64,000 nucleotides of DNA, taken from positions 1-64,000 of the forward strand of contig CAVPOC010000012.1 of the NCBI GenBank assembly GCA_963706955.1, written 5' to 3'. The translations under genes were made by a program, and so were the position numbers. This document shows positions 34,365 through 48,995 of this stretch, piece by piece; position 1 is the stretch's first letter; the number at the start of each line of letters is the position of its first letter. The notes under the pieces are model-generated. The model was given only the letters and a program-made list of their open reading frames with translations. It was not told where the DNA came from and searched no databases. Source of the DNA: an uncultured Verrucomicrobiae bacterium (lineage in GTDB: Bacteria; Verrucomicrobiota; Verrucomicrobiia; Chthoniobacterales; Terrimicrobiaceae).

Positions 34365-35498
34365 ATGAATCCGCGTCTGATCTCGAGAGACTTGCAGCCA
34401 CTCCTACGCAAGGTCGAGAGTGGGCTTCGCATCTCCGAAGAGGACGCAAACCTCCTTTATAACAGCACCGACATTAATGGCATTGGGGCGATCGCAAACA
34501 TCGTCCGTGAGCGGAAGAATGGGAACGTTGCGACCTATATTCACAATCGCTACGTCAACTATTCCAACGTCTGCCTCCTCTCCTGCCAATTCTGTGCCTT
34601 CGGTGCCAAGAAGCGCGAAGCGCATGCATTCGAGATGGCAATCCCCGAGATCGTCCAGATCGTTCGTGACGCTTTGAACCTTGGTATTACCGAGATTCAT
34701 ATGGTCGGGGGACTCCACCCGACTCTGAAAGGGGATTGGTATCTTGAGTTATTACGCAGCCTTCACGGACTCGACGAGCAGTTGATCATCAAAGCGTTCA
34801 CCGCCATCGAGATTAGACACCTCGCCGAGCGCGTCTTCAAACTTCCCCTCCGTGCTACCCTTGAGCTTCTCCGGGAGAACGGACTGGGTGCGATTACCGG
34901 CGGCGGCGCCGAGATCTTTGATCCGGAGATTCGCGATAAGATCTGCCGGGGCAAGGAAAGCGCCGAAGAATGGCTTGAAGTGCACAGAACCTGGCACCAA
35001 ATGGGGGGCCACAGCACTTGTACCATGCTCTACGGTCACATCGAAACTGCCTCTCACCGGATCGATCATCTGAGACGCCTGCGCGAACTTCAGGACGAGA
35101 CCGGTGGCTTTACCGGATTTATTCCCTTTGCTTTTGAGCCTGAAGGTGCTCGCCCTGTCCTGCACGGAATCGCCCATGCCACCGCATTCGAAGAATTGCG
35201 CAACCTGGCGATCAGCCGACTTTTCCTCGATAACATTCCTCACATCACCGCTTATTGGATCAGTCTTGGACTCCCTCTCGCGCAACTTTCCCTCAGTTAC
35301 GGAGTTGATGACCTTCATGGCACCATCATCGAAGAGAAGATCTTCCACATGGCAGGAGCACGAACACCACAGCAGCAAACGGTAGAGGCTCTTGAGAAGG
35401 CCATCCGTGAGGCAGGTCGCATCCCGATGCAACGGAACAGCTTCTACGAGCGCATATCCAATACCATGCCGCGGGCCCCGCACCTGGCGGCGGCGTGA
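34365..35498 (+). CDS. mqnE: Aminofutalosine synthase (radical SAM)
   Basis: [44 protein letters not shown]; coupled to mqnA. Confidence 0.9.
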
Positions 35499-36271
35499 GT
35501 CCAGCTGTCTTCGCTCTTTCCGGTCTGCGAATCGGTCCGGTTTCCTATCTCAACGCCAAACCGTTGATCTGGGGCCTCAATTCGAGTCTCCTTCGAACGG
35601 ATATTCCAGCGGTCTTGTCGGAGCAGTTTTTCGCGGCAAAATTGGATATCGCCCTGCTGCCGGTTGTTGACGTCCTTCGAGCGGGCGCGGCATCGATTGT
35701 CGATAATGTTGGTATCGCCTGCGATGGCGAGGTCTTCAGCGTGGTGGTCGCCAGCCGGACAAGCTTCTTGGAGACGCGCAAGATTCACCTCGATCCTGCT
35801 TCCCGCAGCTCGACAGCGCTCCTGCGGGTTTTGCTTGCTGAGTTTTATCCCGGAGGTCCGCAAATCGCGGAAGGCGAGGAGATGCCTCACGAAGGAGCGC
35901 GACTCCTGATCGGTGACTCGGCCATCGCGTTCCGTCGATCTAAGGGATCAACCTGGCACTATCACGACCTGGGATGGCTTTGGAAAGTTCATACCGGACT
36001 TCCCTTCGTTTTCGCCGTCTGGGCGGTGGCCAGTGGTGCCAGTTCTTTGGTTTTCGACGCGCTCCGCGACGTCAAAGCGGCCGGGCTCGCGGCACGCAGA
36101 GAGATCGCTGCGCGGGAACCCGATCCAGAGTTCGCCTATGCCTATCTGACAAAGCATATCCGCTACGACATCGGCAGCGACGAGAAGGCGGGTCTTCGAC
36201 ACTTTGAGGGGCTGGCGAAGCGTCACGGCATTCTTCCCGAGACCTCTGCAGCCAGACTCGATTTCCGTTGA
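35495..36271 (+). CDS. mqnA: Chorismate dehydratase (futalosine pathway)
   Basis: VSYLNAKPL, ASRSSTALL, LLIGD.A, DLG..W...TGLPFVFAVW. Confidence 0.92.
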   Translation: MSPAVFALSGLRIGPVSYLNAKPLIWGLNSSLLRTDIPAVLSEQFFAAKLDIALLPVVDVLRAGAASIVDNVGIACDGEVFSVVVASRTSFLETRKIHLDPASRSSTALLRVLLAEFYPGGPQIAEGEEMPHEGARLLIGDSAIAFRRSKGSTWHYHDLGWLWKVHTGLPFVFAVWAVASGASSLVFDALRDVKAAGLAARREIAAREPDPEFAYAYLTKHIRYDIGSDEKAGLRHFEGLAKRHGILPETSAARLDFR

Positions 36272-38907: not shown

Positions 38908-39711
38908 ATGCCTGCCTCCAACGCTTTTCTTGCACGTGAAACCTCAGCCTCGTTGCGAGCGCCTTCGGTAGACTGGCCGCTGCTCAAGCGGGTTTCGCGT
39001 TCTTTTTATCTGAGCCTTAGGCTTCTGCCCAGACAGGTCCGCGAATCGATAGCGCTCGCTTATCTTCTCGCCAGACTATCCGATACTTTGGTCGATGGAG
39101 CGACCACCGACGCAGAAAGGCAACTCCTGGCGCGACGCCAGGAAATCGAGGCATGGCTTTCCTGTTCGCCGGATCGTCTTGAGATCGAAAGCGTCTGGTC
39201 AACCATTCGCCAGGGTCAGGGGTTCGACCATGAACGCTTCTCGGCCAATTCAGCCCCACTTAGCCCGGAGGAGCTCGATCGCTATACGTATCTCGTAGCC
39301 GGATGCGTCGGCGAATTTTGGACGCTTCTTTGTGAAAAGAAAATACCTGGCTTTGCATCCTTGGAATTCTCCAAATTGCGCGATTTGGGTATCCGCTTCG
39401 GCAAAGGGCTTCAACTCGTCAACATACTGCGCGATCGACACGGCGACGCGCTGATGGGGCGCATCTATGTGCCTCCTGAGCGGTTCGCGGCCGCCTTGGC
39501 GGAGGCTCGCGCGCATCTTGATGCTGCCCGGCAATACGTCGATTCGCTGCGGATTTATCGCTTGCGGGTTGCTTGCACTCTCCCGCTCTACCTGGGAAAC
39601 GCCACTCTCGATCTGGTCGAGCGCTATCCGTCAAGGGAGCGCGTGAAGGTCCATCGCCTAAGCGTGTGGCTCCAGTTCCTGCGAGCTTTGCTGCCCGGAA
39701 AGATCAGCTGA
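38908..39711 (+). CDS. Squalene/phytoene synthase family protein
   Basis: LLKRVSRSF, ARLSDTLVD, YTYLVAGCVGEF, GKGLQLVNILRD...GRIYVP. Confidence 0.88.
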   Translation: MPASNAFLARETSASLRAPSVDWPLLKRVSRSFYLSLRLLPRQVRESIALAYLLARLSDTLVDGATTDAERQLLARRQEIEAWLSCSPDRLEIESVWSTIRQGQGFDHERFSANSAPLSPEELDRYTYLVAGCVGEFWTLLCEKKIPGFASLEFSKLRDLGIRFGKGLQLVNILRDRHGDALMGRIYVPPERFAAALAEARAHLDAARQYVDSLRIYRLRVACTLPLYLGNATLDLVERYPSRERVKVHRLSVWLQFLRALLPGKIS

Positions 39712-39737: not shown

Positions 39738-42700
39738 TCAATCGAAGGATGTTTTCGCGTATTCCCGCAAAATCCCGGCCAGGACCTTAACGGTGGGTTG
39801 GCTCAGCATCTGATCGGGATCGCAGTTCAATCGATTAATGGCCGCGTCGGGGGCACAAGCTCGCCAGGCGGCTTCGTGATCACGCGCCATCGTCGTCCCC
39901 ATTACTACGCAGCAGGGACCGCTCAGCGGTCGCGTGCGAAACTCTCTCAAGGCATTGGCATGCGAGATCTCGACCGAGCGCATGTTTGAATCGACAAGAA
40001 CCTCGCGCTTACCAGAGCGCGAAAATGCTCGTGAAAGCGAACGCATCCAGTCATCGGCCTTTCCGTTGAGCAAAGGAGCGCGCGAGCCCGTCAAGGCAAG
40101 ATAACGGACGCGAGAACCCGCCTCGCGCATGCGGTGAGCCATCTCAAACGCGAGAACCGCCCCGAAACCGTAACCCAAGAGATGATACGGGCCATCGGGG
40201 TCCTGCATTCGCACCGCTTCAACCAGGGCGGCAGCCTCACTTTCCACGGTTTGATGGCATGCTGCCGGTTCGGTGAGCCCGCGGGCTGTTGTCCCGATCA
40301 GTGTCCAATCTTCGGCGAGCAGTGTGATGAGTTCTCGGTATTTTTCCGGACTCCCTTCGACGTCATGAATAAGGAACAACGTGGGAGCGTTGGGAGTAGT
40401 GTGCAGGAGCAACAGCGGCTGCCAGGTGATCGAATCGGCCGGATGGACTGTCGGCGAAGTCTTCGTGAGCACGTCAGTCAACGATCGATGCAGCCTCGCC
40501 GAATCAATTCTCCCGCCGGCGGTGAGTGGAAACTCAGCGACGGCATGCAGGTAGTCTGGCTGCATCGTTTTTGGCTGAGCACTAATTGCACTTTGTATTG
40601 TCTCCGAGACATGAAGGCTGCGATCTTGCAGAATTAACCAGGCATGGCGAGCGGCCCTGGCACCGCCTGCCATGGTTACGCAATGTGCGTCTTGAACTCC
40701 TGCAATCTCGGTCAGCGATCGTTCGATAAGCTCGTCGTCCGAGGGGATCAGATGAATGACGCCCGATTTGTCGCGCCAGGCGGGCGCGGCGAACTTCTCT
40801 GCATGGTCGCGGAGCTGAATGGTCAATCGTCCTGGGTAGCGCGGCGGAATGAGATGGCCGGCCGAATCGATCAAGCGCGCTGCAACTCCGGCGCGTGGAG
40901 TTCCAAGAGGAACTTCGGTGATGGAGACGGAAAGGCCCGGTCGATCCCCGGCTTCATAGTTAACACTCAAACCGGAAAATCCCACCGGGCTGGAAAAGAA
41001 GATCGTTCTCGCCCGGCCGTCGTTGATCTCCTGCCACTGTCGATGGATTGCCGGCGCCAAAACTTTCCGCTCGATGCATACACAACGCAGCGAATCTGGA
41101 AAAGCCGCCCGCTCTCCTCGTAGCCCTGTTGTCCAGCTCCGCCATTGCGCGGAAGTTAGACGCAGATGCGAAGGCCTAGCATTTCTTAGCGTCGCGGCGA
41201 GTTCTCCCTCTCCGAGCAGAATGATGGTCGACCCTGCGAGCATTGCCGAAAGCACTATTTCTGCGAAAGCGGCAGTCCCACCGGTTGTTAGGAGAGGAAT
41301 TCTATCTCCTGGTTGCAGCTCCCAGAGAGTAATGGTCTCCAGACACGCCTCGAGCAGCAGTTGTGAGCTTAAAGTTTGCACGGCAGGCGGCTCATCAAAT
41401 TCCGTGCCCGTAAGAACCAAAGCGGGCTGGGGGTCGGCCACTGGCGGAACTTCCCCGCTGGATGTCGCGGTGATCACATCCCACTTTTGATCCAAGATAA
41501 TGAGCTTGCACCTCAGGTTCGCGAACAAGGGCGCGGTGATTGAATCACAGAGAACAATGTTCACATCGAGAGCGGTGAGCTTGCTGGCGAGCCACGTCGC
41601 ACTGGAATTTGGATCTAGAGGCACGCACGTTTTCCCACCGATAAGAATTCCCAGGACGGCGACCGGCAGCCAGGGCGTCGGTGTCAGACATGTCGCGACA
41701 CGGCCAGTATGGGCGGGATCTTCAGTGCGAAGATGAGCCGCGAGCAGCTTTGCGCATGAGTCGAGCTCGGCAAGGGAGAGCGCCGCATCGTTTGGTCCCT
41801 CAATCGCGAGTGATAAAGGCTGTCGCGTAATCACCGCGGCGATTTTCTCCTGAAGGGTCAGGCTCGGCTTTTCGCTCAGCCGCCCGAGCTCCTTAGGTTG
41901 GGGGATTTCGGTTTCGGCCTTGGTGAGAATAGAGAGCGACCCCACCTTCCCCGCAGGGTCTTTGATGACCGACTCGGTCACCCGCACGATCCGCTCCAAA
42001 AGATTTGTCGCTTCCAAAGAAGGAAAGAACTCGGGATCGAATTCAACCCGCAGTTCGAATTGTTGTCCCGACCGCACCTCGATGGTGAAGGGAAAAATCG
42101 AGCGCTGGATCGCCTTGACGTCGAAGCGAATCCAGCGGGGAAGTGCGCGGTGGATACGATCATTCAGCGCCGTCGGCAACCACAAAAAGGCGACGGGAAA
42201 CTCGCTGAGAGGGCGATTCGGCTGCGAGGACTGGAGGGCTTGGGAAAGGCTGATGGCGGCGTGATAGCGACGTTCCTCCTCCTCGAAGGCAATACTCTTC
42301 AACCATTCGGTTGCCGTGCGTTCATCTCGAATCGAGACAAGCGCAGGTAGAAGATTCTCGATCAGACCCCAGCCCAAATTTCTCGGACCGGCCACGGAAC
42401 AGCTTGCCAACAAAGTCAGGTTATCGCGGTCGGTCAATCGGCCGATTGCCAGCGCCCAAAACGCGAGGAATGCGTCCCGGGCCGAAACTCCGAGCTGTCG
42501 GCATAGCTTCTGGAGAGACGCAGAGACCTCGCGGTCCATCGTAAGGTGGCTTTCAGCACGCGCACTGGTAGGCAAATCCAGCGCCCGATGGGGGTAGACC
42601 CGAAGCATCCGGGGCTGGGCAGCCTCGGCAAGATGTTTGGACCACCAGTCGGCCGTCGTCTCAGACGCCTCGAATAGTCTGGATGGTTCTTCCGCATCCA

Positions 42701-43187
42701 AAGGTAATGCTCCTTCCAAGGCACCGAGCCATGCACAAAGCAGGCGGAAGACAGCATCTTCATCAAGGAGGACCTTCGGATAGGTCATTAACAAGTGGCA
42801 GTGGCCTTGCGGCAACTCAATCGCGATGAATCGAACCAGGGGCGGTTTAGCGAGATCAAACGGCTGAGCGGCATCTTCTTCGAGTAACGCAGACCAGCGC
42901 TCAGGCGCCTCTTCGGCAGCCAGCTTCGTCCAATCGAGCAATCGCCATGAGGCCTCGATCCCATCGTGCTCGCGGTAGAGAAAGTCACCCGCCGGGACCT
43001 TGAAAAAGCTTGAGCGAAGGACGCCATAGTTGGCGGTGACCTGCTGCCAAGCCTGGCGGACGCGGGCTGCCGGACAGGCTTCCCCGAGACTTATCGACAA
43101 CTGGATGTTTTGAAACGCCGCCGAAGGAGAAGAAGCATGTAGAAAACAAGCAGTGGTTTGAGCAGGGTGGGCGGGTGACTCGCGCAT
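39738..43187 (-). CDS. Degenerate NRPS-like protein (condensation-adenylation-thioesterase, no carrier domain)
   Basis: C scaffold LRSSF and PFDLAKPPLVR; A scaffold VPLDP and PLTAGGRID; TE DGPYHLLGYGFG; catalytic residues substituted. Confidence 0.82.
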   Translation of the reverse strand: MRESPAHPAQTTACFLHASSPSAAFQNIQLSISLGEACPAARVRQAWQQVTANYGVLRSSFFKVPAGDFLYREHDGIEASWRLLDWTKLAAEEAPERWSALLEEDAAQPFDLAKPPLVRFIAIELPQGHCHLLMTYPKVLLDEDAVFRLLCAWLGALEGALPLDAEEPSRLFEASETTADWWSKHLAEAAQPRMLRVYPHRALDLPTSARAESHLTMDREVSASLQKLCRQLGVSARDAFLAFWALAIGRLTDRDNLTLLASCSVAGPRNLGWGLIENLLPALVSIRDERTATEWLKSIAFEEEERRYHAAISLSQALQSSQPNRPLSEFPVAFLWLPTALNDRIHRALPRWIRFDVKAIQRSIFPFTIEVRSGQQFELRVEFDPEFFPSLEATNLLERIVRVTESVIKDPAGKVGSLSILTKAETEIPQPKELGRLSEKPSLTLQEKIAAVITRQPLSLAIEGPNDAALSLAELDSCAKLLAAHLRTEDPAHTGRVATCLTPTPWLPVAVLGILIGGKTCVPLDPNSSATWLASKLTALDVNIVLCDSITAPLFANLRCKLIILDQKWDVITATSSGEVPPVADPQPALVLTGTEFDEPPAVQTLSSQLLLEACLETITLWELQPGDRIPLLTTGGTAAFAEIVLSAMLAGSTIILLGEGELAATLRNARPSHLRLTSAQWRSWTTGLRGERAAFPDSLRCVCIERKVLAPAIHRQWQEINDGRARTIFFSSPVGFSGLSVNYEAGDRPGLSVSITEVPLGTPRAGVAARLIDSAGHLIPPRYPGRLTIQLRDHAEKFAAPAWRDKSGVIHLIPSDDELIERSLTEIAGVQDAHCVTMAGGARAARHAWLILQDRSLHVSETIQSAISAQPKTMQPDYLHAVAEFPLTAGGRIDSARLHRSLTDVLTKTSPTVHPADSITWQPLLLLHTTPNAPTLFLIHDVEGSPEKYRELITLLAEDWTLIGTTARGLTEPAACHQTVESEAAALVEAVRMQDPDGPYHLLGYGFGAVLAFEMAHRMREAGSRVRYLALTGSRAPLLNGKADDWMRSLSRAFSRSGKREVLVDSNMRSVEISHANALREFRTRPLSGPCCVVMGTTMARDHEAAWRACAPDAAINRLNCDPDQMLSQPTVKVLAGILREYAKTSFD

Positions 43188-43196
43188 GCTGAGGAA

Positions 43197-44900
43197 TCAA
43201 AGGCCAGCGTCCGTCACCGCCCCGAGCGAAGCGGTCGTCACGTGTGCCGCATACTTAGCCAAAACCCCTCGGCGATAACGAGGCTTTGGACGCTTCCAGC
43301 TTTTCAGCCTCGTTCTGATCTCACCTTGTGAGACGCGAAGATCGATGGTCCGACTTTCCGCGTCGATCGTGATAATATCGCCATTCTTGACAATTGCGAG
43401 GGGTCCACCGTCGAACGCCTCGGGCGTGATATGCCCCACCACAAAACCGTGAGTGCCACCGGAGAAGCGTCCGTCGGTGACCAACGCCACTTCCTTGCCG
43501 AGGCCGCGGCCCATGACCGCGCTGGTCGGCGAGAGCATCTCGCGCATCCCGGGTCCTCCGCGTGGTCCCTCGTAGCGAATAACGATAACGTCTCCTCTCT
43601 TGATCTCTCCTTGAAGGATCGCATGCATAGCCGCCTCTTCGCTGTCATAGACCCGGGCAGTTCCGCTAAATTGCTCGCCTTCCTTGCCGCTGATTTTGGC
43701 AACGGCTCCCTCCGGTGCCAGATTGCCGCGGAGAATGACCAAATGGCTGTCCTTTTTCAGAGGCTTGCTCAGCCGAGCGATGATTTGCTGACCCTTTGGA
43801 TAGGCTTTAAACGGCGCGAGATTTTGCTTAAGCGTCTTGCCGGTGACCGTCAGGCAATCGCCGTGCAACAAGCCGGCATGGACGAGCTCTTTCATCAAGG
43901 GAACGATGCCGCCGATCTCGACCAACTGGCTCATCATAAAGCGACCGCTCGGTTTGAGATCGGCTAAGACCGGGACGCGCTTTCCGATTCGCGTAAAATC
44001 ATCCAAGTCGAGACGCACATTTGCCGCATGTGCGATGGCCAGCATATGAAGCACCGCATTTGTGGAACCCCCCAAAGCGATGACCACCGTGATCGCGTTT
44101 TCGAACGACTCCTTGGAAAAAATGTCCGAAGGCCGAATGCCCCGTTTCAGCATCTGGATGACCGCGGCGCCGGCATCGTGACAATCGCGGACTTTGTGCT
44201 CGGAGATTGCTGCCTGTGCCGAACTGTTTGGCAAACTAAGGCCCATCGCCTCGAGCGCCGAGGCCATCGTATTGGCGGTGTACATTCCCCCGCACGATCC
44301 AGGACCTGGGATAGCGCAGGATTCGACAGCATGCATTTCCTCCTTGTTGATCTTACCGGCGGCTTCGGCCCCAACCGCTTCGAAAACGGAAACGATGTCG
44401 AGATTCCGGCCGTTCAGACATCCCGGCAGAATTGTGCCACCATAGACAAACACCGCTGGCCGGTTCAGCCGCGCCATGGCAATGCAACAGCCCGGCATAT
44501 TCTTGTCGCAGCCGCCGATCGCCACAAAGCCGTCAAAGCCCTGGCAACCAACCACCGTTTCGATTGAGTCGGCAATCACTTCGCGCGAAACGAGCGAATA
44601 CTTCATTCCCTCCGTTCCCATCGAAATTCCGTCCGATATGGTAATGGTGTTAAAAATGGTCGCCTTTCCTCCGGCGTCGTTGACTCCCGCAGCGGCTTCC
44701 CGCGCAAGTTGATCGATGTGCATGTTGCACGGAGTGACCATGCTCCAGGTCGAGGCAACACCAATCTGCGGTTTGGAAAAATCGTTCTCCCGGAAACCAA
44801 TCGGATACAACATCGCACGGCTCGGAGCGCGGCTCTCGCCGTCCAGGACAACGGACGAGAATGGACGCAAACCGTTTTTTGCAGAGACTTTGATTCTCAT
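43197..44900 (-). CDS. ilvD: Dihydroxy-acid dehydratase
   Basis: [47 protein letters not shown] 44900 chosen. Confidence 0.97.
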
Positions 44901-44955: not shown

Positions 44956-46353
44956 TCAACGGGCTCTCTTCGATTCGATCGCTTCAATGGCGTCGCGAAT
45001 GTCGTCTCTTTCCCGAGGCCCAAGTTGGTCGCTTTCGAGCGCAGCACGATAGCTGCGCAGCGCCGACTCGGCCAAGCCCTGTTTGGCGTAGGCCTGCCCC
45101 AGGTAGATCTGATAATCAACGGGGGAGACCCCCGCGTTTCTCGCGTTGGTGACGAGTTTTTCAAGGGATGCGGCTTCGCCGCTGTAGTCAGTGAGGGTTC
45201 TCCGAATTCGCGCCGAGAGAAACAGAGTGTATGAATCATTGGGCGACTCGAGGAGCACCTCCTCAGTAAGCTTCTCCGCTTGCTCCGTCTCACCTGTTTC
45301 GAAGAGTGCCAACGCCTGAACCAACTTCGCATGGCCAAGGTTAGGGTTGCTCTCGAGAGCCTTTCTGCTATGGGCAAGGGCGTCCTGCCAACGCCGCTGC
45401 GCGACGGCAAAGTTGGCCGCGTGGGAGAGCACTGAGGTGTTTTCAGGAGCCAAGCGAAGTGCACGCTCAAGGCAAGCGCGCGCATCTCCGGTCCGCCGAA
45501 TCGCTTCATAGTAACCAGCGATCTGGGCTAAATAGAGCGCGGTTCCATTATCCGGTCCAAATTGAAAGGTCTCCTCGAGAGCCCGTGGCGGAAGCCCGGG
45601 ACCATGGCGAAAGAGAAAGCCATGGTTGGTCACAGAAGCAAGGTGCCAGTCGGGCGATATCAGCAGGTGATCCAGCAAGGGTCTGTATTCTCCGATCGGG
45701 CCGGACAGAACGACGGCAGGCCATCGCTGCCGGCGAAATGCCTCACGCCATTGGCTGGGATTTAGCGCGAGGCGGGCAGAATCCTCTAGCGAAACGCCGC
45801 CTCCCTCCTTCGGAAGAAGAAGCAAGAGCAAATGCCTCAATGCGGTGGGATTTGCAAACACCTTCTCTCCGCTCAGCCGCCGGACCTCGTCAGCCAATTC
45901 CGATGGAAGCAGGAGGCGCAGATCGGATGCCGTCTCCCCGCGGTTTCTCCAGCTCATCCACACTGGCGGGACACACGTGGCCAAGACAAGGATAATGGCA
46001 GAACCGAAAAGAATCGCCCGGGAGCGCCGATCATCGAGCAGTCGCACAATCGCGTAAATTACCGCCAGCGAAAACAGCGTTGCCAGCGTCCAGCCGGCAA
46101 AGACCGCCACCCATTGTCCGGTAGCCAGCAGGGAGGCTCCGCCAGCCTCCCAGAGACGGCCCGCGACCAAGTCCGACACTGACGCATTCCCAAATCCCTC
46201 GATCCTCCGGAGTGACGCCAAGCCACGGATTGCCGCTGCCAGGCTCCGCTGCGTAGGAAAGCCACTGAGAAAGGGCAGGGAATGCAAGAAACCGCAGATA
46301 ACGGAGGCAGCGACGCCAAATATCGCGTATCTGAAAGACGACGACCTAGACAT
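44956..46353 (-). CDS. Membrane protein with C-terminal TPR repeats
   Basis: About three N-terminal TM helices; TPR-like units such as [25 protein letters not shown]. Confidence 0.8.
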
Positions 46354-46386: not shown

Positions 46387-46893
46387 ATGAAACTACCACT
46401 TCTCGTCCTCTCCGCGATAAGCTTGTTTGCGTTGACGGGCAGAGCTGAACCACTCACCGTCGGCACGCCCGCGCCTGTTATCACCGCCAAAGATCAAGAC
46501 GGTCAGGCCATCAACTTTGCGGATGTTTACTCCAAGGGAACGACGCTGGTTTATTTCTACCCCAAGGCGGGCACCGCTGGTTGCACGGCACAAGCATGTT
46601 CGCTCCGCGACTCGTTCGCGGATTTGAATCAGAAAGGATTGCAAATCATCGGCGTGAGCGAAGACACCGTCCAGTCTCAAAAGAAGTTCAGGGACGAGAA
46701 CCAACTTCCATTCACCTTGATTGGGGATAGCGATGGCAAGGTCGCTGAGGCCTTCGGAGTGCCCATAACCATGGGTCTCGCCAAACGGCAGTCGTTTATT
46801 ATCAAAGAGGGGAAGATCGCGTGGGTTTCTCCGCAGGCGAAGACGAAGGAACACGCCCAGGAGGTCCAGGCCGCGCTTCAGTCCCTGAACTAG
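46387..46893 (+). CDS. bcp: Peroxiredoxin BCP/PrxQ with signal peptide
   Basis: VYFYPKAGTAGCTAQAC; N-terminal signal peptide. Confidence 0.9.
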   Translation: MKLPLLVLSAISLFALTGRAEPLTVGTPAPVITAKDQDGQAINFADVYSKGTTLVYFYPKAGTAGCTAQACSLRDSFADLNQKGLQIIGVSEDTVQSQKKFRDENQLPFTLIGDSDGKVAEAFGVPITMGLAKRQSFIIKEGKIAWVSPQAKTKEHAQEVQAALQSLN

Positions 46894-47066: not shown

Positions 47067-47318
47067 TCAGTTCCCTTCCTCGTCTGCCGCCGGGGTGGGG
47101 CGCTCCGACTTGGGAAGCCTTTTCAGGATCTTCTCGGTCTTCTTTTTCTTTCTGACTTCAAGTTCCCACTTGACGGGATTGATCTCGCCCTTGGTGCTCC
47201 ACCAACGGCTGCCCGTCCACATTCCCAAGGTGCGGGTTCCGTTTGGAAGCCAGACGCGAACTGCCTTATAGGGCACCGGTTTCTCATTATCGGACTGTTC
47301 CCGCTCTCTATCCTTCAT
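47067..47318 (-). CDS. Small hypothetical protein (Trp-rich, basic)
   Basis: 83 aa from ATG 47318, downstream of tRNA-Lys; the longer ORF crosses the tRNA. Confidence 0.5.
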   Translation of the reverse strand: MKDREREQSDNEKPVPYKAVRVWLPNGTRTLGMWTGSRWWSTKGEINPVKWELEVRKKKKTEKILKRLPKSERPTPAADEEGN

Positions 47319-47434
47319 CGAGTAAATTGTGGGACCTGAGGGTAATGGAAGCGCCTCCGGTCCGTCAAACCTCTGATGCTCGCAAGCCCAGTCGCCTCGC
47401 CTCGGTATATCACTAGAACACTCAGCTGGGGGAG

Positions 47435-47506
47435 TGGGTTGGGAGGGACTCGAACCCTCAACCAACGCCTTAAAAGGGCGCTGCTCTACCATTGAGCTAC
47501 CAACCC
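47435..47506 (-). tRNA. tRNA-Lys(TTT), CCA not encoded
   Basis: GGGTTGG/CCAACCC acceptor stem, D arm GCTC..GAGC, anticodon loop CTTTTAA, T arm GAGGG-TTCGAGT-CCCTC. Confidence 0.96.
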
Positions 47507-47653
47507 GCAGTCCGGCCCCAAAACCAAGAAAGAGAACTCCATCCGGCGGCTTTGTTTTGCGCTCTCCAGCCATCCACGTGGCAATTGGAGCGACGTCGCA
47601 TATTAATCCACAATCGCTCGGAAGGCGCAAGAGTCTTCCCCCAAGCGCTGGCC

Positions 47654-48995
47654 TCATTCGCGAACAGGCTCTTTCGCTTCGACTTCGTCGGTCGCCAAGA
47701 GGGTAATCCGCGCCCGACGTAGCCCGGAAGCGTGTGTCTGCAATGCAGTGATCTCAAACTCGCCGATTCGCAGACTTTCATCTCGTTGCAAGAGTCGTCC
47801 CGCGAGTCGCTTTACCCAGGCTTCGACCGTCTCACGGGGTTGAAACTCAAAGTTCCAACCGGTTTCCGCGCGGAGTTCGCGGATGGGGAGGGAAGCATCG
47901 ACCACGATGGAGTGCTCGGTTTGCTCGAAGATCGGGCCTCGTTCGATGTCGAGCTCGTCGCGGATCTCTCCGACGATTTCTTCAAGGACATCCTCGAAGG
48001 TAACGATGCCGAGCATCGCCTCATTTGTATCAATGACGACAGCCAAGTGACGGCGCGAGGAGCGAAACAGCTCCATCATTGTCGGCAATGGTGTCATCGG
48101 GAAAAAGGTCAACACAGGACGCATCAGCGGTTGAAACGACGACTTTTCTCCCAAGCGCTTGAATTTGCCAGAGCCATTCCTTGATCAGGACCATTCCAAG
48201 CACATTGTCGAGAGATTCCTGGCAGACGGGATATCGACTGTGACCACTCTTTTGCGCAATCCTAAGATTCTCATCGATGCTCTTGTCCACCCAGAGCGCC
48301 ACCACTGTTGTCCGGGGAAGCATCACCTGCTGCGCAGTAACGTCGCGCAGTCGTAACGAGCGGACCATGATCTTATTGATCAAGGCGTCACCGGGATGAA
48401 TGTGCCTGGAATGGCTGAGGACATACTCCAGCTCGTCGGCGGAGAAGGCGTGCTCGCTTTCGGAAGCCGGCTGCAAGCCCGCCCAGCGAAGAAACATGTT
48501 TGCCGTGCCGTTCAGGACGTAAATAAACGGAAAGAAAATATAATAAAAAATCAGCAGCGGGGCTGCGATCCAGAGAGAAACGCCCTTAGGCCGTTGAATG
48601 GCCAATGATTTCGGAGCGAGCTCACCCAGGACGATGTGGAGGAAGGTAATGATCGTGAACGCTACTCCAAACGCCAGCGAGTGCTGCAAACGGACGCTGT
48701 TCACGCCGAGATACGCAAACGCCGGCTGCAGCCAGTGTGCCAGAAATGGCTCACCGAGCCAGCCAAGGCCGAGGCTGGCGAGAGTAATCCCAAGTTGAGT
48801 GGCCGAAAGGCAGGCATCCAGATTGTTGACCGCCCGGAGCGCCATCGGCACCCGCCAATCCCCTGATTTGAGCAGGGGCTTGAGCTGACTGGCCCGGATC
48901 TTCACAATGGCGAACTCCGCCGCCACAAAGAATCCGTTCGCGCAGACAAGCAAAAGGATGACCAGAAGCTGCCATCCCAGTTCAAATAGCATCAT
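47654..48995 (-). pseudogene. CNNM/HlyC-CorC (hemolysin-family CBS) transporter, frameshifted
   Basis: DUF21 (NGFFVAAEFA, GELAPKS) and CBS1 (HSRYPV) are in one frame; CBS2 (GIVTFEDVLEEIVGEI) and the CorC domain are in the +1 frame; switch near 48150. Confidence 0.85.

Follow-up and report, generated by a model that had tools for sequence, protein, structure and literature searches.

The gene at positions 39738-43187 of the DNA analyzed here, a 64,000-nucleotide window of contig CAVPOC010000012.1 from an uncultured Verrucomicrobiae bacterium, encodes a protein of 1149 amino acids (aa) that is a nonribosomal peptide synthetase (NRPS) by descent but not by function. Positions without a locus label refer to this window, the gene lies on its minus strand, and residue numbers are those of the 1149-aa protein. 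We have high confidence that this protein, called pseudo-NRPS below, is a selected pseudoenzyme of some kind, and a whole peptide synthetase has probably taken on a new, non-enzymatic role. The latter is probable because all of the catalytic sites have been lost, yet the gene is intact across a large branch of Verrucomicrobia that includes symbionts with tiny genomes. An enzyme fold whose catalytic residues are lost across orthologs, together with purifying selection and long retention, is what characterizes a functional pseudoenzyme, and each of these features is found here.

A sequence-only reading of the locus had described an uninterrupted frame with recognizable condensation (C), adenylation (A), and thioesterase (TE) scaffolds, and this description holds. 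The frame is open throughout, and Pfam matches Condensation, AMP-binding, and Thioesterase domains in the protein, with no match to PP-binding. The AlphaFold2 model, built from a 23-row alignment, has a mean pLDDT of 85.4 and a pTM of 0.71. Its top Foldseek matches are whole termination modules with the domains in the same order, namely AB3403 (4ZXH), ObiF1 (6N8E), SrfA-C (2VSQ), and EntF (5JA1), at 16-17% identity. The protein therefore has the folds of an active NRPS termination module in the right order, but it lacks the C and A active-site motifs, the carrier Ser, and the TE triad of one.

The residues needed for condensation, adenylation, and release are those described in the portions of PMC10510592 available to us. 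Motif losses were read from alignments to solved NRPSs and intact relatives, and counts per alignment column are for 51 family members below 60% identity. Every motif reading quoted in the earlier account proved accurate, each aligning to a catalytic motif of the intact relatives. In the C domain, HHxxxDG has become PKVLLDE, with K138 at the position of the second His. The catalytic His is retained in one of the 51 members, and the motif Gly in none (39 have Glu instead). A single member, at L072:1579-5097(-), has both His residues of this motif (HHxxxD), and its remaining domains are dead. The A domain has lost the P-loop (A3), the A4 Asp, A5, A7, A8, and the A10 Lys, whose column holds R893 here and Lys in 2 of 51 members, and its A7-A8 stretch spans 40 residues versus 79 in intact relatives. 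The linker from A10 to the TE domain is 25 residues long versus 98-100 in intact relatives, and therefore the carrier (T) domain, whose absence had also been claimed, has been deleted. Seven of the 51 members keep a full-length T remnant without the carrier Ser, and the other 44 have deleted the domain. At the TE nucleophile column, the protein carries G1007, where Gly is found in 46 members and Ser or Cys in none. The TE His column holds Pro here and His in no member, and the TE acid is Gly in 39 members. This last loss and that of the A4 amino-group-binding Asp, which none of the 51 members retains, add to the list given earlier. By the usual numbering of the A4 Asp and the pocket positions, the A-domain substrate pocket has Arg in 33 of 51 members (676) and Glu or Asp in 39 (706), where intact sister enzymes have Asp and Gly, which suggests that the pocket plugs itself.

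These losses extend across the entire family. Of the rows 1000-1400 aa long, 84 in all, 78 show none of the motif patterns for C, A3, A5, A7, T, and TE (the A10 pattern is matched somewhere in 2 of these 78), six are intact or nearly so, and no family member keeps a working domain set. A FastTree analysis of 42 dead and 57 active C-A units and an IQ-TREE analysis of 58 C domains both recover a single dead clade (SH 100), in trees that have long branches and carry no bootstrap values. In both trees, the neighbors of the dead clade are a few intact single-module enzymes of the C-A-T-TE type that have a Cys nucleophile. The chemistry of all four domains was thus lost a single time, basal to a clade of six families. 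The T domain was deleted later in most branches, and inheritance since then has been vertical and under purifying selection.

Orthologs were sought with a 34-row profile in 261 genomes of the order, presumably Chthoniobacterales, whose families are coded f1-f16; the first pass was stricter, and the counts are floors. They occur in at least 65 of 72 genomes of six families (G000 excluded): 44 of 50 in f1, 12 of 12 in f16, 4 of 4 in f9, 3 of 3 in f4, 1 of 1 in f10, and 1 of 2 in f2. Four f1 congeners (G006, G009, G011, and G013) carry a clean deletion in which ilvD abuts the squalene synthase gene and the block is otherwise identical. Two further f1 genomes (G003 and G678) match neither pseudo-NRPS nor ilvD, and thus the region is probably unassembled in them. 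The profile search gave no match in f3, f5, f6, f11, f12, f13, or f15, and the gene was not found in G037. Another 13 weak matches, from f7, f8, and f14, were treated as ordinary NRPSs rather than orthologs; three have intact motifs, L053 groups with active modules, and nine were classed by their low score and frame length only. Among the matches examined in a class-level sample of 301 genomes, no dead ortholog was found outside the order, and the candidate G302 was rejected as an intact sister enzyme. A locus search with the single protein gave two close loci. In the ESM Atlas, we found the probable cluster of the family itself (79 members, “hypothetical protein”) along with ordinary NRPSs, and database names for the family are hypothetical protein or NRPS component. 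In a 55-row tree of IlvD, carriers of pseudo-NRPS group into a single clade (SH 95) together with non-carriers, and the presence of the gene requires six changes, at least four of which are forced by well-supported branches. We read this as one gain followed by at least three losses.

Evidence for selection comes from dN/dS ratios, which were computed by the Nei-Gojobori method. Comparisons of pseudo-NRPS with five congeners gave 0.195, 0.143, 0.113, 0.116, and 0.113, where the last three have dS values of 1.65-1.98 and are near saturation. Among the neighboring genes in the same congeners, values were similar for sqs (0.11-0.25) and tpr (0.13-0.22) and lower for ilvD (0.03-0.05). Of four parts of the protein, TE has the lowest dN and is most constrained, and Asub is least constrained. 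Between two 0.9-Mb genomes, the ratio is 0.187 versus 0.06-0.115 for six other genes, and further pairs gave 0.093, 0.185, and 0.317. Overall, the values (0.09-0.32) are far below 1 at every distance. Because they are low but above those of core enzymes, the gene appears to be maintained under looser constraint than such enzymes.

It is very improbable, and refuted by selection, that pseudo-NRPS is a functionless remnant slowly decaying in the ilvD operon. The occurrence of at least three losses, a dN/dS of up to 0.32 that exceeds the rate of neighboring enzymes, and the erosion of Asub and T would fit such decay. However, the losses are clean whole-gene deletions, frames of 1050-1280 aa remain open at 19-30% identity across six families, dN/dS never approaches 1, and the gene is retained in 0.9-Mb genomes after its separation from ilvD. 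The proposal that this is a repurposed pseudo-NRPS rather than a decaying gene is thus supported by orthologs in six families, a single clade, purifying selection, and retention in the smallest genomes.

The nearest intact relatives are uncharacterized C-A-T-TE(Cys) NRPSs (L065, L122/P0079, P0142, P0219, P0225, and P0267). Their TE nucleophile, and so the ancestral one, is Cys (GWCYGG) rather than Ser. The sequence LHRALPxW occurs in the latch of three of them, as in pseudo-NRPS, and supports the sister relation beyond the trees. Furthermore, the C domain of pseudo-NRPS groups with this intact clade, whose best other matches are NRPSs labeled TIGR01720. These relationships show that the ancestor was of the single-module C-A-T-TE(Cys) NRPS type. 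One sister, P0142, has intact A, T, and TE domains but a dead C motif and looks like an intermediate step, and the T motif is not matched in P0225.

Two sister genes, at L065:7665-11630(-) and L122:9965-13945(+), lie within polysaccharide-synthesis clusters, and each encodes an intact C-A-T-TE NRPS of a single module whose TE is of the Cys type. These are the only two sister loci that could be read, and their neighbors are GT4/GT2, WecG-type, sugar-transferase, and chain-length genes. A wider search for sister contexts found no locus beyond those two, and the remaining matches are ordinary NRPSs by hidden Markov model score. The sister enzymes may decorate glycans with amino acids. Because their loci lie among glycan-synthesis genes, the ancestor may have been an enzyme that attached an aminoacyl or acyl-aminoacyl group to a glycan.

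The residues that the dead protein conserves differ from those that served catalysis. The 34-row alignment has ten invariant columns, every one of them in the C domain, and the residues of this domain best conserved over deep time are S31, G35, E36, W86, W98, L125, P126, H131, P350, W352, and D356. Relative to three aligned sisters, the newly fixed residues include S31, S33, H131, E143, W153, R219, N342, D343, D356, R376, H674, D833, and G1007. In the C domain, S31 and H131 are each present in 49 of 51 members, D356 in all 51, and R219 in 45, while the catalytic columns drift freely. The HxALPxW core of the latch was inherited from the intact sisters, and N342, D343, and D356 are new. Since strands of the latch extend the N-lobe sheet (PMC10510592), a single face is plausibly made up of the first strand, the 125-131 hairpin, and the latch. 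In the TE lid, 46 of 51 members have a basic amphipathic 11-mer, more than at any other of the 280 positions scanned; elsewhere, such an 11-mer occurs in at most 27 of 51 members at any position, with a median of 10%. The lid helix is predicted poorly in the AlphaFold2 model, and membrane-binding helices are often poorly predicted in models.

We tentatively favor the proposal that pseudo-NRPS is a non-catalytic, membrane-docked binding or scaffold protein made from a whole NRPS module. The basic amphipathic helix of the TE lid would dock the protein to the cytoplasmic membrane from inside the cell. A protein partner would bind at the latch and at the conserved edge of the N-lobe of the C domain, much as P450s are recruited by X-domains, and the plugged A domain would act as a rigid spacer. 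Because the ancestors sit in glycan clusters, this partner would most likely belong to envelope glycan or lipid metabolism. Among the roles that had been suggested from the sequence alone, a scaffold fits best, for a partner that is itself putative.

Several observations weigh against this proposal. The gene is dispensable, as it is cleanly deleted in four congeners and was not found in f13 or G037. Its dN/dS is 1.6-3 times higher than that of six other symbiont genes. The lid helix was inherited from active ancestors, and its retention may serve folding. The link to glycans comes from two loci and concerns the ancestor only, and the dead gene has no glycan neighbors. Finally, the single surface patch of conserved C-domain residues is a prediction from secondary structure and general C-domain topology.

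Some of the same residues could serve a different purpose. It is doubtful, although worth considering, that pseudo-NRPS is a lipid or metabolite binder in which the dead C tunnel or the TE cleft holds acyl-ACP (acyl carrier protein), acyl-CoA, or a lipid-linked sugar, so that the protein acts as a membrane sensor or chaperone. New polar residues near the former C site and the latch (E143 in 39 of 51 members, N342, D343, D356, and R376), the membrane-type lid helix, and the low dN of the TE domain would suit such a role, and the one stand-alone carrier protein in each small genome could dock. However, the change from Gly to Glu may merely block the tunnel, and these carrier proteins are probably the usual fatty-acid ACPs. 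It is also improbable that the catalytic residues have moved elsewhere in the protein to give a new enzyme. Conserved His, Asp, Glu, and Arg residues outside the canonical motifs (H131, E143, D356, H674, and D833) and the HHxxxD motif of L072 might hint at one, but no domain conserves a complete catalytic set, the canonical columns vary freely, and the TE nucleophile is Gly. Moreover, 44 of 51 members have no T domain and the other seven have no carrier Ser.

The genomic association with ilvD raises another alternative. In all 24 fetched loci outside f9, ilvD is directly upstream of pseudo-NRPS (gap of -1 to 204 bp in 23), which is a tighter linkage than that of tpr with ilvD (13 of 23) or of sqs downstream of pseudo-NRPS (9 of 24). 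In the window, pseudo-NRPS begins 9 bp after the ilvD stop codon, as had been reported, and the two genes are probably co-transcribed. A promoter scan at the locus gave chance-level results only, and no clear terminator lies between ilvD and pseudo-NRPS. In f9, the symbiont family, ilvD is elsewhere in four of four genomes, tpr was not found, and bcp is upstream of pseudo-NRPS in three of four. The ilvD link may reflect a shared promoter because f9 has ilvD elsewhere and the gene still beside bcp. After the relocated ilvD of a 3-Mb f9 genome (G563:C3), a large cluster of active-type NRPS genes begins immediately (L247:8613-14999(+), with frames of 3,610 and 10,137 aa).

We regard it as unlikely, though a serious alternative, that pseudo-NRPS regulates IlvD or senses branched-chain amino or keto acids and is co-transcribed with its target. 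This would account for the tight linkage and for the presence of ilvD in all four f9 genomes, and it draws some support from Liv-type ABC genes convergent with pseudo-NRPS in two small genomes and from a LeuA-family gene nearby in G240. A related version, which we also consider rather unlikely, is that a domesticated, membrane-docked pseudo-NRPS binds or controls IlvD or branched-chain amino acid flux and is kept in nematode symbionts with a proposed role in supplying essential amino acids. However, when ilvD moved in f9, the gene stayed by bcp, and f12 and f13 keep bcp-tpr-ilvD without pseudo-NRPS. In the four congeners without the gene, IlvD is unchanged at every position that carriers conserve. 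The Liv-type permease does not track pseudo-NRPS, being present in non-carriers and missing in three of three f16 carriers tested. The A4 Asp is absent in all 51 members, and pocket positions are occupied by Arg and Glu. The case for a branched-chain ligand sensor, which had been raised at the outset, is therefore weak. The TPR neighbor likewise does not track the gene, being found in 32 of 43 panel genomes and in none of the four f9 genomes.

The sequence-only reading had also offered a partner of an active NRPS, and a helper or inhibitor of this kind is very improbable and largely refuted. An intact multi-module NRPS cluster is located on contig C8 of the genome that supplied the window, but its modules branch at a distance from the family in the tree, and NRPS-rich congeners have lost pseudo-NRPS. 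Among 47 carriers, drafts of which can miss NRPS clusters, other condensation-domain matches are NRPS-sized genes in four, a stand-alone frame of 443-511 aa in five (G020:C9, G732:C15, G575:C362, G025:C10, and G252:C4), and absent in 38. The last group, like the two closed small genomes described next, lacks the active paralog that would accompany a prozyme-type dead paralog. In G044 and G058, which are closed, single-contig, 0.9-Mb endosymbiont genomes, pseudo-NRPS is the sole AMP-binding-family (PF00501) gene, and each genome has one stand-alone carrier-protein match. A phosphopantetheinyl transferase gene is present about 6 kb from pseudo-NRPS in both (L062:1113-2096(+) and L063:17868-18518(-)).

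In the supplement to one Xiphinematobacter study, the gene carries the name “Linear gramicidin synthase subunit B” (lgrB) and stands beside livF (PMC7857533), a neighbor that agrees with the small-genome locus. In that of a second, the same label is filed under “Defense mechanisms” (PMC4607532). The gene is not mentioned in the passages of the two main texts covered by term searches.

Features of pseudo-NRPS and its neighbors in the window
Feature	Positions	Strand	Basis
pseudo-NRPS gene, 1149 aa, C-A-(T deleted)-TE	39738..43187	-	open frame, Pfam, AlphaFold2 model, fold matches
Dead condensation domain, residues 1-430	41898..43187	-	Pfam, alignments
Former HHxxxDG site, residues 136-143	42759..42782	-	alignments
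Latch motif, residues 341-357	42117..42167	-	alignments
Dead adenylation domain, residues 440-905	40473..41870	-	Pfam, alignments
25-residue linker at site of deleted T domain	40413..40490	-	alignments
Dead thioesterase domain, residues 925-1149	39741..40415	-	Pfam, alignments
Basic amphipathic helix in TE lid, residues ~1044-1062, low pLDDT; putative membrane anchor	40002..40058	-	
ilvD (dihydroxy-acid dehydratase), 9 bp upstream of pseudo-NRPS	43197..44900	-	start inferred from orthologs
TPR protein, first gene of likely tpr-ilvD-pseudoNRPS operon	44956..46353	-	
AhpC/TSA (bcp-like) gene, divergent, marks ancestral slot	46387..46893	+	
Squalene/phytoene synthase-family gene (sqs), convergent with pseudo-NRPS	38908..39711	+	

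As had been stated, no biosynthetic cluster surrounds the gene. The genes on either side are of the housekeeping kind (ilvD, TPR protein, AhpC/TSA, squalene/phytoene synthase, DUF362, and GGACT by Pfam), and its GC content matches that of the rest of the window. Two genes at 34365-36271(+) are syntenic in several families, and we take them to be mqnE and mqnA of the futalosine pathway. A tRNA-Lys(TTT) is located at 47434-47506(-), and a 196-aa open reading frame (ORF) that overlaps it (47067-47657) is probably spurious in the overlap. Just downstream of pseudo-NRPS in two f1 genomes is an array of related ORFs of 305-963 aa (L077:6837-8273(-) and L078:1-8044(-)), three of which gave no match in a Pfam scan.

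Among known systems, the AB3403, ObiF1, SrfA-C, and EntF modules share the domain order and folds of pseudo-NRPS, but pseudo-NRPS lacks catalytic motifs, a T domain, and a biosynthetic cluster, and it is inherited as a core-like gene. The intact sisters have the HxALPxW core of the latch and a basic amphipathic lid in common with pseudo-NRPS, but they retain A, T, and TE motifs (apart from the unmatched T motif of P0225) and lie outside the ilvD slot. Pseudo-α/β-hydrolases such as NDRG proteins and neuroligins have Gly at the nucleophile elbow and reuse the fold for binding. These are eukaryotic single-fold proteins, and their resemblance to pseudo-NRPS is by analogy. The TE domain of ObiF1 is of the Cys type, like that of the intact sisters, and the X-domain is a catalytically inactive C-like domain that recruits a partner protein (both from the portions of PMC10510592 available to us). 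The X-domain of glycopeptide NRPSs (Tcp12, 4TX2) is the best functional analogy. The trees include no X-domain rows, and no X-domain structure is among the PDB matches at E<=1e-30. An X-domain is one dead domain within an active assembly line with P450s, whereas pseudo-NRPS is a whole dead module that stands alone beside ilvD. By this analogy, pseudo-NRPS would resemble an X-domain scaled up to a free-standing protein.

Dead single NRPS domains such as the X-domain were already known. Searches of open-access literature listings, which cover neither subscription papers nor bioRxiv supplements, gave no description of this family or of a wholly dead multi-domain NRPS module inherited as a core-like gene across families. 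The evolutionary series is complete, extending from intact enzymes through forms with a dead C domain, forms that are all dead with a T remnant, and forms with T deleted, to loss of the gene. Close congeners without the gene are natural knockouts, which makes its function testable by comparative genomics. The finding also corrects annotation, as the lgrB label misleads; genome miners would count a biosynthetic gene, yet no peptide would be made by known chemistry. If the reading that involves IlvD or branched-chain amino acids were true, an entire assembly module of secondary metabolism would have been domesticated into a housekeeping regulator. More generally, that a 0.9-Mb symbiont retains a gene this large (about 3.6 kb) speaks for an unrecognized cellular function in abundant soil and freshwater bacteria.

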